This document shows, in pieces, positions 30,001 through 36,000 of a DNA stretch of 36,877 nt. How positions within the stretch are numbered: position 1 is the first letter of the stretch; each line of letters begins with the position of its first letter. Source of the DNA: a virus (lineage: Duplodnaviria > Heunggongvirae > Uroviricota > Caudoviricetes). The DNA lies in IMG/VR virus record IMGVR_UViG_2874927903_000002; one strand, 5' to 3'. A program made the position numbers.

Positions 30001-33000
30001 CACCGCTCATCAGACGTGAGCCCACCGCCGTTGTACTGTTCAGCGCATTCTGGGCGGCGCTTCTGGCAGCAATATTTCTGTTCAGGCGTTCCTGTGTGGC
30101 CGCCAGACGGGCCTCTGCAGCAATCTGCATCTCCGTCCCGCGGGCTGCCGCCACGGCCTGCTGAGCACGGTACACGGCTGCCCTTGCCCGCGCCGTGGCA
30201 ATCTGCGTTCCCCTGAACTGTGCTTCCGCCAGTGCAACTTCATTACGTGCAGCCGTCACAAGTCCTGCCGTGGCAGACATCGCTCCGGAGGCCATATTGC
30301 CAAAGTACCGGGCAACCCCGACGGCAACCAGCGCCCCCACAGCTGTTGCCACATTATCAATCTGTCCGGCAACACCGTTCAGCACGCCGGAGAGCGTTTT
30401 TGTCACCCCGCAGGCCTCATTCACTTCGCCCACCCAGGCCATAAAGGCGTTTTCCACCTTCGTGATACTACCGGAAACCGTTTCCGGCATGGCCGCATAT
30501 TCATCACGTAATATCCCCAGCTGGCTGATTAACGCAGGGACCACTTTATCCGCTGTCAGTTTTCCGTCATCCGCCATTGCCTTCAGATCTTTACGGGCCA
30601 CACCCATCCCCGCAGCAAGCGCGCGGATCACCCGGTCGCCATTTTCGTTAACAGCATTAAATTCTTCGCCACGCAGTACACCCTGTGCCAGTGCCTGGCT
30701 GAACTGGGTGATCACCGAACCGGATTCCGCAACTCCAGCCCCTGACAGTTTCAGTCCTGTCGAAATGGCCTCCGTCACCTTCAGCACATCATCAGCACTG
30801 TAACCATATTCACGCATCGAGGCAGCCGAACGGGCAAACAGGGCCGCATTATCCGAAAACGCGGTACCTGTTCGCTGACTGATATCCATCAGCACTTTCT
30901 GTGATGACGAGAATTCATCCGATGACTGAGATGCCTGTTTCAGACGGGCATTCACGGAACCCCACTCATCGGCCAGCGAAATCAGGTGTCCGGTGGCAAA
31001 GGCACCGGCAAATGCGCCAGCCATTCCGACAGCAGAACCGCGAATTTCCGTCAACTGACTGTTCAGTTCTGCAAGGGCGCGGCGCTGTTCCCGTGCGGCA
31101 GCAGCGGCATGACGTCCGCCATTCTGTAGGGTCCGGTAATATTCACTGCCCATACGGGACGCCCGCTGGATCTCCGACTGGAATGACTGTGAATTTGCCG
31201 AAATTTTGAGTGTCGTTACGGGGAAGTCATCTTCATAGGGATCTTCGGTCAGTTAGTATTACCGACATCCATTCACCAACTTACCGGAGATAATCGATGT
31301 CAAAACCCCGATGGACCATTGAACAGAAAAGGCAGCACGTTGCTGCCTGGCGCGCCAGTGGTCTTACACGTCAGCAATACTGTGAACTCAACGATATTCC
31401 CTTCACATCACTTCGCGAATGGCCGCAGGATGTCGCAAAAGCTGAACGCCGGGCAAATGAACCGACCGTTCTTCCCGTTCATATTGCGCCACCACTGCAT
31501 GCTGATGTACCACAGCCCGTCACGAATGAGCCAGTCACGCTCTTCCTTCCCGGTGGAGTACGGATGTGCTGTCAGCCGTCACAACTTACCGATGTCTTCA
31601 GGGCACTCAAATATGCTCAGTCCTGATAATGTCTTCATCGCAATTAAACCTGTTGACATGCGCCGGGGCATCGACTCACTGACGCAGTATATACAGGATG
31701 AACTCCGGTCGACATGGCATGAGGGAGCCGCCTTCGTCTTTGTTAACAAAGCCCGTTCGCGTATCAAAGTTCTCCGGTGGGATAAACACGGGGTGTGGTT
31801 GTGTACCCGCCGTCTGCACAAAGGCAGCTTCCGCTGGCCACGTGCAAATGACGCTGCCTGGCACCTCACTCCCGACGAGTTTAACTGGCTGATTGCCGGT
31901 GTTGACTGGCAGCAGGTTAAGGGACATGACCTGACGAAATGGGTCTGGCTGAATGAACCTGAACTGCGCCCTGAAAACACGCAAAATACACTGCTAACTC
32001 AGTGAAAAATAATGAATATCCGTATCTGGAGTGGTATACTCCCCTGTATGGATATCTCCGCTCTCAACACCACGAATGACATCGAAAAACTGCGTGCTAT
32101 GGCACTTGCCATGGTACAAGAAGTCATGTCGGAGAATGCCGAAAAAGAGCGGGAATTACTGGAGAAAAGCCGGCGCATCCAGCTTCTGGAAGAAATGCTG
32201 AAACTGGTTCGTCAACAGCGCTTCGGAAAAAAATGTGAAACGCTGGCTGGTATGCAACGCTCCCTATTCGAAGAGGATGTTGATGCCGATATCGCCGCGC
32301 TTACCGCACATCTGGATAAACTGCTCCCGCAATCCCCTGAAGAAGATGAAAAAGCGTCCCGTTCACGCCCGATACGCAAACCCTTACCGGTTCATCTTCC
32401 ACGGGTGGAAAAAATTATCCAGCCGGACACTGACCATTGCCCTGAATGTGACGAGCCGCTGCACTATATCCGCGATGCGGTGAGTGAAAAGCTGGAGTAT
32501 ATTCCCGCTCACTTTGTGGTGAACCGTTATGTCCGTCCGCAATACAGTTGTCCCTGTTGCCAGAAGGTGTTCAGCGGTGAAATGCCGGCACATATCCTCC
32601 CGAAAAGTGCCGTTGAGCCATCAGTCATCGCACAGGTGATCATCAATAAATACGGTGACCACCTGCCTCTGTATCGCCAGCAACAGGTCTTTGCCCGTTC
32701 AGATGTCGGGCTGCCCGTCAGTTCGATGGCTGACATGGTTGGCGCGGCGGGTGCCGCATTATCTCCCCTGGCGGCGTTACTCCATCGCGAGTTGATAAAC
32801 CGTCCGGTGGTGCATGCAGATGAGACTACCCTGAAGATCCTGAACACGAAGAAAGGCGGTAAATCCTGCTCCGGTTATCTGTGGGCATACGTCAGTGGAG
32901 AAAGGACGGGACCGTCAGTTGTGTGCTTCGACTGCCGGACCGGACGTAGCCATGAGTATCCTGAAAACTGGCTTCAGGGCTGGGGCGGGACGCTGGTTGT

Positions 33001-36000
33001 CGACGGACATAAAGCTTACCGGACTCTGGCAAACAAAGTGCCGGAGATCACGCTGGCCGGATGCTGGGCCCATGCCCGCAGGGGCTTCGCCGACCTGTAT
33101 AAAATCAGTAAAGATCCACGGGCTGCCATAGCCGTGAAGAAAATCGCGGGGTTGTACCGTCTTGAGAAGAAGATCAGTAGCCGCCCCGTGGAAAAAATCC
33201 GCCAGTGGCGACAGCGTTATGCCCGTCCGATACTGGAAGAACTGTGGTCATGGCTTGAAGAGCAGGAACCGCAATGTTCTCCGGGAAAGGCATTACACAA
33301 AGCCATTGCCTATGCGCTGTCTCATCGCGTGGAACTGAGCCGCTTCCTGGAAGATGGTGCGGTGCCGCTGGATAATAATGTGTGTGAACGGGCCATCAAA
33401 AACGTGGTTCTGGGCAGAAAATCGTGGCTGTTCGCCGGTTCGCAGATGGCGGGAGAACGCGCCGCGCAAATAATGAGCTTGCTGGAAACCGCGAAACGCA
33501 ACGGTCTGGAGCCGCATGCCTGGTTGACAGACGTCCTGATGCGTCTGCCGGAGTGGCCGGAGGAGCGACTGGCAGAGTTGCTGCCTCTTGAGGGATTTAC
33601 CTTCTCCGGGTGAGTGATACCTGCCGTCAGGTGTTCGTGCACCGGGCCATAACCTGCAGTCGGGAGTTGAACTCCTGACGGCAGGAAATGAGCCAGACCA
33701 GCAACCACGCGGGCTGACAGCGAATAAGAACCTGAATCAGCCCGGAGTCATTCCCGGGTCAGTACATCATCACCTGCAATTAATCCCCGAGTCAGTACTT
33801 CGCGGCCTGACGCGATCACGCTACTCAGTACTTCAGAGCCCGCCTCCGGTACCTGCCTGGCGATCGCCTCTGTGCAACAAAATAAATCAACCGTTATCAA
33901 ACCACGAGCGTTCGTATGCGCCGCCGATGACGCGCGCCTGAAAAATGCGTCAATATGAGTTCCCCGGAAGCTTACAATTTTGATAATCAGTTCACGTAAC
34001 GTCGCCATTCACCTTTCTCCGGGCGTAAAAAAACCGCCTCAGCGGTTCTCATCATTCATGACTGTGCTGCAAAGCTCAGCGCGTCTTCCAGCGCCGCAAA
34101 CGGATCCACCTCCGGCTTATCCTCATCCTCGCCCCAGCAGAGCATGACGTCCTTCAGTGCAACATTCATCCCCTGTGCCCCGAAAACCGCTTTCACGATC
34201 TGTGCATTACGGATATCCCCGCGCTCATCACCCAGCGGGGATATCCTGTCGAACTCCATCCACATCATCGCCTCGCTCGCACTCAGGCTGTGGCGCAGTT
34301 CGGATAAGGTGCGCCCCAGACGGAGCGCAAGTCGCATCAGAAAGCGAATTTCCGGGCGGGCTACTTTTTTCTGGCCGACTCTGCATCAGCGATCAGTTCC
34401 AGTGCCTGACGCAGCAACCGGGCATGTACCGGACCATAGACGGCCAGCACCTGCTCACGGTCGTCCGGAGTGAACACCCGCTGCAGGTCCGTATCACACA
34501 GGACATCGCAGAACAGCGTCACATCCGCTTCCAGGTTACGGCGGGTTTTCGCCACCACCGACAGGGTATCGTCATCCTCTCCATCACCATTGAGCACTTC
34601 CTGCCACAGATACCAGGCCTCTGCCGAAGGCTCCCGCAGCACCACGCTGACATTCCCCCATTCCGGCACCTTCACCGTTTTATGACGAAACCCTGACAGT
34701 CTGGCCAGCGCCAGCGTTTTCAGATCCTTTTTCATGATGACCCATCCCCTTATCCGGCAGCTGCGCTCACTGTCACGGTGCATTCAACAGACGTCACACT
34801 CTGTGCTTTCTCTGCCGAATCGGTCACCACGCAGGTATATTTCCCCGCATCAGCGGACTGCGCACCTGGCTTACTGAAGGTGTCTGTCGTCTGCCCGTCA
34901 ACCGGCTGACCATCCTTCTTCCAGGCGTATTTATACGGCGGCATTCCCCCGTTGGCACTGACTGACATTGTCAGCAGCGCACCGGTATTCACGGTAAGTG
35001 TCTTATCCAGATTTTTCACAAACGCCAGCGGTACCACAAAGGACACCGGTTTGCCTTTCAGACGCAGTGAGAACGTTGCAGCCACCACACCGTTGGTACC
35101 GGATGACCAGGTGTGCTGACGCACTTCCGCCAGGAATTTAGGTAATGACTCCAACTTACTGATAGTGTTTTATGTTCAGATAATGCCCGATGACCTTGTC
35201 ATGCAGCTCCACCGATTTTGAGAACGACAGTGACTTCCGTCCCAGCCTTGCCAGATGTTGTCTCAGATTCAGATTATGTCGCTCAATGCGCTGAGTGTAA
35301 CGCTTGCTGATAACGTGCAGCTTTCCCTTCAGGCGTGATTCATACAGCGGCCAGCCATCCGTCATCCATACCACGACCTCAAAGGCCGACAGCAGGCTCA
35401 GAAGACGCTCCAGTGTGGCCAGAGTGCGTTCACCGAAGACGTGCGCCACAACCGTCCTCCGTATCCTGTCATACGCGTAAAACAGCCAGCGCTGACGTGA
35501 TTTAGCACCGACGTAGCCCCACTGTTCGTCCATTTCAGCGCAGACAATCACATCACTGCCCGGTTGTATGCGCGAGGTTACCGACTGCGGCCTGAGTTTT
35601 TTAAGTGACGTAAAACCGTGTTGAGGCCAACGCCCATAATGCGTGCACTGGCGCGACATCCGACGCCATTCATGGCCATATCAATGATTTTCTGGTGCGT
35701 ACCGGGCTGAGAGGCGGTGTAAGTGAACTGTAGTTGCCATGTTTTACGGCAATGAGAGCAGAGATAGCGCTGATGTCCGGCAGTGCTTTTGCCGTTACGC
35801 ACCACGCCTTCAGTAGCGGAGCAGGAAAGACATCTGATGGAAATGGAAGCCACGCAAGCACCTTAAAATCACCATCATACACTAAATCAGTAAGTTGGCA
35901 GCATTACCCTGCCGTTTTTGCTTCATACTTACACCCTTCAACAATAAAAATGAGAGGGAATGCTTTTGGCCGGGAGTAGTTTACTGACGTTGCTCGATGA

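Follow-up and report, generated by a model that had tools for sequence, protein, structure and literature searches.

Comparison with known elements and phages

The IS679 and IS66 prototypes of the IS66 family are reportedly about 2.5–2.8 kb in length, carry tnpA, tnpB and tnpC between imperfect ends and duplicate 8 bp of their target. The DDE transposase of the prototypes has zinc-finger and leucine-zipper regions, and tnpA and tnpB of the prototypes reportedly overlap in a 4-nt ATGA. In lambdoid Stx-type phages and prophages, such as phage 2851 ('minor tail protein H', CAQ82049.1) and an E. coli prophage (WP_000212762.1), the tail genes are ordered V-G-T-H-M-L-K-I-J. In Shigella genomes, IS-driven pseudogenisation and prophage decay are a known pattern.

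The stretch analysed here (the window, 36,877 nt of IMG/VR record IMGVR_UViG_2874927903_000002) showed the same order of tail genes. Its tape-measure gene (H) carries an IS66-family element which differs from the prototypes in the left end (GTGTCG instead of GTAAGC), in a tnpA/tnpB overlap of 14 nt and in a long non-coding tail of 362 bp after tnpC. The ends, the three genes and the 8-bp length of the target duplication were the same as in E. coli copies that were named ISEc49 by NCBI PGAP. Compared with the 1080-aa tape-measure protein of the phage 2851 type, the copy in the window has the element after codon 11 and two deletions, of 157 bp and 42 bp, and therefore cannot encode that protein. 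Outside the two deletions, it was 90.9–100% identical to the copy of an O157:H16 prophage in 300-column segments of the alignment. The locus resembles other cases of IS-driven prophage decay in Shigella with nothing distinguishing found, and the insertion and the decay are an ordinary kind of event.

Insertion element

The element is 2766 bp long (31210-33975, plus strand) and lies between two copies of AATTTTGA at 31202-31209 and 33976-33983. This octamer occurs only three times on the plus strand of the whole window and two of the three copies directly abut the element. The first-pass annotation had placed a 2.77-kb IS66-family element with an 8-bp direct repeat at 31202-33987; the element, the repeat and the start coordinate were all confirmed, but position 33987 lies 4 nt past the right repeat. 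The left terminal inverted repeat GTGTCGTTACGGGGAAGTCATCTTCA (31210-31235, plus strand) starts with GTGTCG and the right one, GTAAGCTTCCGGGGAACTCATATTGA when read from the end inwards (33950-33975, minus strand), starts with GTAAGC. The two repeats are imperfect, with 18 of 26 positions matching when read by eye, and each end was identical in four other copies.

Full-length copies were found in 229 E. coli records, on chromosomes as well as plasmids. Among the best matches listed, nucleotide identity was 99.0–99.7% over all 2766 bp, and the copies compared showed 8 to 27 point differences, the best copy (99.7%) differing at 8 nt. At three other E. coli loci the copies had the same first and last bases and their own 8-bp duplications (CTTCATTC, GCATTAAC and AGAGAAAG), which supports both the boundaries and the duplication. 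The presence of TnpC, TnpB and TnpA, the 8-bp duplication, the imperfect ends starting with GT and the copies at multiple loci place the element in the IS66 family. It would be best described as ISEc49-like, a name which rests on the PGAP product name of the near-identical copies ('IS66-like element ISEc49 family'); in the literature searched, ISEc49 was mentioned only in passing, in two papers. A second IS66-family element in the window (8572-10543) was considered as the donor and rejected, as it had no nucleotide similarity to the element at 31210-33975.

The three genes of the element are open, without any internal stop codon, and are oriented opposite to the tape-measure gene. tnpA (31297-31626, plus strand) encodes an IS66 accessory protein of 109 aa which matched NCBIfam NF047593 with 50.8 bits (cutoff 28) and was identical to WP_000042910.1 of other element copies; the Pfam search gave no family match for it. 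tnpB (31613-32005, plus strand) encodes the IS66 Orf2 accessory protein of 130 aa (PF05717, 120 bits; NF033819, 115 bits with a cutoff of 50). tnpC (32048-33613, plus strand) encodes the IS66 DDE transposase of 521 aa (NCBIfam NF033517, 442 bits with a cutoff of 180), with Pfam matches to LZ_Tnp_IS66, zf-IS66, DDE_Tnp_IS66 (PF03050, 303 bits) and DDE_Tnp_IS66_C; an alternative upstream ATG at 32012 would give a product of 533 aa.

The remaining 362 bp (33614-33975, plus strand) form the non-coding right end, with a 17-nt inverted repeat (33620-33636 and 33669-33685) and repeated TCAGTAC motifs. This part varies more among copies than the coding part does, and 33 bp of it are missing from the sister genomes L021 and L025. 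The Rfam search of the whole window gave nothing at gathering thresholds, so that an RNA element in the tail is not supported. A promoter and terminator scan of 31000-34400 gave counts close to shuffle expectation and no outward-facing promoter at the left end of the element that could drive the tape-measure fragment.

Tape-measure gene

The interrupted gene lies between the G/T chaperone genes and M-L-K-I-J and has the Pfam domains TMP_3, Phage_HK97_TLTM and Tape_meas_lam_C (PF20155, PF06120 and PF09718), a domain content and position that identify it as a lambda/HK97-type tape-measure gene. The target duplication corresponds to nt 26-33 on the gene strand, which places the insertion after codon 11 as had been proposed. 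Codons 1-11 (MATLRELIIKI; 33976-34008, minus strand) now run into the element as an 86-aa chimeric ORF (33748-34008). The rest of the gene, from codon 9 onward when the duplicated bases are included, occupies 28191-31209 on the minus strand according to the Pfam domains and tblastn, and is split into a 489-aa ORF (29684-31153) and a 500-aa ORF (28191-29693).

When the flanks were joined, they read MATLRELIIKISANSQSFQSEIQRASRMGSEYY... in frame, as the first-pass annotation had claimed. The joined sequence matched 1249 E. coli and 92 phage records without interruption at a coverage of at least 80%; among the best matches listed, these were single pieces with 100% coverage and a top identity of 99.6%. 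The first 40 residues of the reconstruction agreed fully with those of the three intact homologs, from the O157:H16 prophage, the JKHS016 prophage and phage 2851, and no mismatch at the N-terminus was found among them. Since the insertion cuts the start codon and codons 1-11 off from the rest of the gene, it would by itself abolish tape-measure synthesis and tail assembly.

The element is one of several lesions in this gene. Without the element, the reconstructed gene measures 3044 bp (remainder of 2 when divided by 3) compared with 3243 bp in the three intact genes. The difference consists of a frameshifting deletion of 157 bp and an in-frame deletion of 42 bp (14 codons), and both sit between short direct repeats. 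Alignment to the intact genes placed the junction of the 157-bp deletion at 29698-29713 (minus strand), where one repeat copy, CCGGGCTGGACGACCG, is retained; the second copy, CCGGGCTGGAAGACCG, lies 157 bp downstream in the intact genes. The junction of the 42-bp deletion, between two copies of AGAGCGTG, was placed in the same way at 29483-29495 (minus strand). For a 351-bp query across the 157-bp junction the best E. coli matches covered 508 bp, and tblastn changed frame from -1 to -3 between residues 512 and 561 of the reference tape-measure protein. A natural length variant was rejected as an explanation of the 157-bp gap, since its length cannot be divided by 3 and the segment is present in all three intact references. 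The continuous full-length frame of close homologs (1080 aa) is thus absent and the gene is a pseudogene. As the 157-bp deletion shifts the frame, precise excision of the element would still leave a pseudogene.

Prophage remnant and IS1 junction

The lambdoid prophage adjoins aspS-yecD. The tail assembly chaperone genes G (34364-34735) and T (34059-34337) were located within 34056-34783 on the minus strand by the Pfam families Phage_TAC_1 and Phage_tail_T, and appear to be intact with full-length tblastn matches. The major tail gene V was truncated, as had been stated previously, with only residues 110-238 of 238 kept (34753-35140, minus strand). An IS1 of 768 bp (35141-35908, minus strand) lies between the V remnant and a chromosomal gene; it has no target duplication and its two flanks differ. 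The chromosomal gene beyond it encodes a DUF808 (yedI-like) protein, and PF05661:DUF808 is recorded on an identical gene in the assembly collection. Nothing upstream of V is present and no head genes were found in the prophage. J, K and lom are frameshifted in the window according to tblastn frame changes.

Approximately eight IS copies or fragments were found in the 37 kb, with nested insertions and IS-bounded deletions, and frameshifts affect both phage and chromosomal genes. The prophage is a defective remnant with several lesions beyond the IS66-family insertion. The earlier reading of the prophage as defective was thus correct, but its attribution of the defect to the element did not hold, as the head genes and V codons 1-109 are also gone and frameshifts are present in J, K and lom.

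Distribution among related assemblies

The same insertion together with the 157-bp deletion was found in at least nine public assemblies, which included closed chromosomes, an NCTC assembly, a draft assembly and Logan read assemblies. The left junction of the element and the junction of the 157-bp deletion were present in all eight loci examined, the right junction of the element in seven of the eight, and the element in 10 of 10 downstream ORF contexts. No empty site was seen among contexts carrying the 157-bp deletion, and no genome among those examined had only one of the insertion, the 157-bp deletion and the IS1 truncation. Over 13,194 bp, one locus (L011, CP026797.1; probably S. boydii NCTC 9353) matched the window with 100% identity. 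The host lineage is most likely of the Shigella boydii type, judging from accession CP026798.1 (S. boydii NCTC 9353 plasmid), which adjoins CP026797.1. Megablast with a query spanning the junction covered it in no record of the complete E. coli genomes, and the insertion is therefore absent from that collection; the exact left-junction pattern was unmatched in a contig collection with one genome per species.

Some sister strains retain intact J and K despite the shared insertion, and tnpC is split in the sister assemblies L009 and L014; some frameshifts in sister assemblies, especially in L014 (18 gaps), may be sequencing errors. Since the insertion is shared with sister strains, some of which keep J and K intact, it is fixed in the lineage and not strain-recent. 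The description of the insertion as recent therefore holds only loosely, as at least nine assemblies share identical junctions but carry different later lesions.

History of the locus

The locus is very likely (probability approximately 0.93) a neutrally decaying prophage remnant in which a single ISEc49-like insertion is one of several independent lesions, without a regulatory or reversible role. The element would have transposed once, by DDE transposition, into nt 26-33 of a gene of the lambda gpH type, duplicating 8 bp. The tape-measure gene probably lost its 157 bp and 42 bp through slippage or microhomology at the short direct repeats, and an IS1-associated deletion, presumably IS1-mediated, would have taken V codons 1-109 and all that lay upstream, head, packaging and early genes included. 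The frameshifts in J, K and lom probably arose later in some strains, and the locus would now decay in an IS-rich Shigella-type genome under what we assume to be neutrality.

The insertion could have been the first inactivating hit, after which a tail module that no longer worked would have let the deletions, the IS1 truncation and the frameshifts accumulate. Strains with the shared insertion differ in their J and K frameshifts, which points to a younger age of those lesions, and the insertion, the 157-bp deletion and the IS1 truncation would all appear to precede them. However, these three events co-occur in every genome examined and were never seen apart, so that an insertion-first order can be proposed only tentatively. 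It is a variant of the decay history given above and compatible with it.

The first-pass annotation had gone further and treated the element as the decisive, recent and potentially reversible lesion, whose precise excision would restore the tape-measure gene and the tail module. The perfect duplication, the intact ORFs of the element and the exact agreement of the reconstructed N-terminus with intact homologs would all fit such a reading. It is nevertheless highly unlikely, as the element-free gene stays out of frame through the 157-bp deletion, so that neither inactivation by the element as such nor reversibility can be maintained, and V is truncated, the head genes are missing and frameshifts affect J, K and lom. 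In addition, at least nine assemblies carry the insertion, the element has since mutated in L009, L014, L021 and L025, and the empty site is unseen among contexts with the 157-bp deletion.

It is scarcely credible that the truncated tape-measure products, or the intact G/T-M-L-I genes of the remnant, are kept for a function and are not debris. The candidate fragments would be the N-terminally clipped 489-aa ORF and the C-terminal 500-aa ORF, each of which the assembly collection lists without change in 115 sample blocks; if retained, they might, for instance, hinder superinfecting lambdoid phages in assembling their tails. An assembly artefact, either a misplaced repeated IS or a collapsed repeat giving the 157-bp gap, has a negligible probability even in IS-rich genomes prone to misassembly and with a deletion lying between repeats, as the same junctions recur in at least nine assemblies made in different projects, the two copies of the target duplication match exactly and a 16-nt repeat is too short for assembly collapse.

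With decay by several independent lesions as the preferred history, the locus should be annotated as a prophage remnant whose tape-measure gene is a pseudogene, on the basis of the IS insertion and the frameshifting deletion; it should not be called inducible or revertible. The locus has little importance beyond annotation; the shared junctions could mark a lineage of the Shigella boydii-like clade.

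Insertion of an ISEc49-like element in the tape-measure gene

The octamer AATTTTGA had three occurrences on the plus strand of the 36,877-bp window, two of which (31202-31209 and 33976-33983) enclosed an interval of 2766 bp (31210-33975). The ends of this interval formed an imperfect inverted repeat, GTGTCGTTACGGGGAAGTCATCTTCA and GTAAGCTTCCGGGGAACTCATATTGA, with 18 of 26 positions matching. It was occupied by three plus-strand ORFs; tnpA (31297-31626; NCBIfam IS66 TnpA, 50.8 bits with a cutoff of 28), tnpB (31613-32005; Pfam TnpB_IS66, 120 bits; NCBIfam, 115 bits) and tnpC (32048-33613; Pfam LZ_Tnp_IS66, zf-IS66, DDE_Tnp_IS66 and DDE_Tnp_IS66_C; NCBIfam IS66 transposase, 442 bits). 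A megablast search of complete E. coli genomes found full-length copies in 229 records, and the best copies (99.0-99.7% identity) were annotated as IS66-like element ISEc49 family transposase together with tnpA and tnpB. Copies at plasmid traF/trbE, beside agn43 and inside rpnC had the same first and last bases and were surrounded by different octamers (CTTCATTC, GCATTAAC and AGAGAAAG, respectively), which indicates that both boundaries and duplication of 8 bp belong to the element and do not arise by chance. The window copy differed from its best match at 8 positions and had no internal stops, so judging from its sequence it may still be active. The non-coding right end (33614-33975) was unusually long at 362 bp and varied more among copies than the coding part; TCAGTAC motifs recur in it, and a 17-nt inverted repeat immediately follows the tnpC stop. 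An Rfam search of the whole window, including this right end, matched no family.

The tape-measure gene H starts at 34008 on the minus strand and opens with ATG GCG ACG TTA CGT GAA CTG ATT ATC AAA ATT. The duplicated octamer corresponds to nt 26-33 of H, which places the element after codon 11. Both the sequence and the ORF matches bore out the first-pass annotation of an IS66-family element with an 8-bp repeat at this point, and its coordinates (31202-33987) were accurate except that the end overshot the right repeat by 4 nt. With the element and one repeat copy removed, H reads MATLRELIIKISANSQSFQSEIQRASRMGSEYY... in frame. When the empty site was rebuilt as a 1200-bp query, at least 80% of it was covered in 1249 records from E. 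coli and in 92 from phages, and the best listed matches were single unbroken pieces with 100% coverage. The top match (99.6% identity), in an O157:H16 strain, fell on genes whose annotated products are tape measure protein, tail assembly protein T and tail assembly chaperone. The proposed N-terminus agreed with intact homologs, residues 1-40 being identical in the O157:H16 prophage (WP_000212762.1), the JKHS016 prophage and protein H of Stx2c phage 2851. The two H fragments had Pfam matches to TMP_3, Phage_HK97_TLTM and Tape_meas_lam_C. An 86-aa chimeric ORF (33748-34008, minus strand), made by the insertion from 11 tape-measure codons and IS right-end sequence, is a gene call in public assemblies with no family match on record.

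Insertion was probably by the IS66-family DDE transposase, which with the accessory proteins TnpA and TnpB would make staggered cuts 8 bp apart; the behaviour of the family is reportedly treated by Han et al. in 2001. The insertion separates the promoter-proximal 11 codons from the remainder of H. No consensus promoter was found facing outward from the left end of the element toward the rest of H, and nothing was found that points to a regulatory or adaptive role of the insertion. Overall the case is ordinary: both the IS and the type of target are known, and the genomes are public ones from a lineage in which expansion of IS elements and decay of prophages are familiar.

Further deletions in the tape-measure gene

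The IS-free reconstruction of H was 3044 bp, not a multiple of three, compared with 3243 bp in all three intact genes. Alignment with the intact genes showed gaps of 157 bp (junction within 29698-29713) and 42 bp (junction within 29483-29495). The intact genes have CCGGGCTGGACGACCG and CCGGGCTGGAAGACCG on either side of the 157 bp and two AGAGCGTG around the 42 bp, the pattern left when sequence is lost between short direct repeats. For a 351-bp query over the 157-bp junction, the best E. coli matches were in two pieces spanning 508 bp and therefore contain the 157 bp. The 157-bp loss shifts the reading frame; tblastn with an intact protein placed residues 9-512 in frame -1 and residues 561-1080 in frame -3, and H was split into ORFs of 489 aa and 500 aa overlapping at 29684-29693. 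The insertion had been described as potentially reversible, a view that fails since this frameshift would leave H a pseudogene even after precise excision.

State of the prophage

Compared with intact prophages from the same chromosomal site (aspS-yecD), only the tail module is left, and gp17/U, head, portal and earlier genes were absent from the window. Of the 238 residues of V, 110-238 remain, and the gene terminates at 35140, where it adjoins an IS1 (35141-35908, 768 bp) without target duplication, as the 9-mers on its two sides differ. This IS1 joins V codon 110 to a chromosomal DUF808 (yedI-like) gene, which suggests that the prophage lost its head and early half, together with some of the chromosome, through IS1-mediated deletion or recombination. 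Frame changes relative to intact prophage proteins were found in the tail tip gene J (~24634-24682), the C40 peptidase gene K (~26852-26888) and lom (~21739), while G, T, M, L and I look intact. The prophage is defective with a truncated V, as first annotated; several independent lesions account for the defect without the IS in H. The earlier interpretation is partly supported, being right on the insertion and reconstruction and wrong on reversibility and causation.

Sharing among sister genomes

In the assembly collection, the exact 489-aa and 500-aa ORFs each had entries in 115 blocks, and the IS accompanied the 500-aa ORF in 10 of 10 contexts. Among the eight loci compared, every one had the left IS junction and that of the 157-bp deletion, and seven had the right IS junction; a search of complete E. 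coli genomes found none with the IS junction. Over 13,194 bp, one locus (L011, CP026797.1) matched the window at 100% identity. L009, L010 and L015, all sharing the insertion, had an intact J (1157 aa), and K was intact in most sister genomes. As the sisters have the insertion, the 157-bp deletion and the IS1 truncation in common and vary in the J and K lesions, this sequence comparison places the first three before the frameshifts in J and K. The insertion is recent, as had been proposed, only in the sense that its duplication is still perfect.

The exception at the right junction was L008 (CP026866.1, locus ~3175), where homology to the window ends exactly at the IS right end and gives way to unrelated genes (an MFS transporter and an IS3-family element), a sign of IS-mediated rearrangement. 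The tnpC of the H-inserted copy was split in L009 and L014, L012 had an additional IS66-family element between L and K, and L021 and L025 lacked 33 bp between two GAAGTACTGA repeats of the IS tail (locus ~890-925).

Other IS elements in the window

The rest of the window was crowded with IS110-family, IS2 and IS1 copies and a second, unrelated IS66-family element. Two inverted copies of an IS110-family element (391-aa transposase; 238-1764 and 7022-8548, 1527 bp) were 99.9% identical and could mediate inversion of the ~5 kb between them. A nested IS cluster (5400-11172) included IS2, with InsD at 5805-6710, and IS1 fragments (6722-7028 and 11045-11172) split by the IS110-family copy. Also part of this cluster is the second IS66-family element, with a 376-aa tnpC remnant (8572-9702) and tnpB (10193-10543), which shared no nucleotide similarity with the ISEc49-like copy. 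Within yecD lies a different IS110-family element (398-aa transposase, 15498-16947), and shortly downstream an IS1 (17342-18109) has a 9-bp target duplication, as deduced from BLAST segments that overlap in the comparison with the reference.
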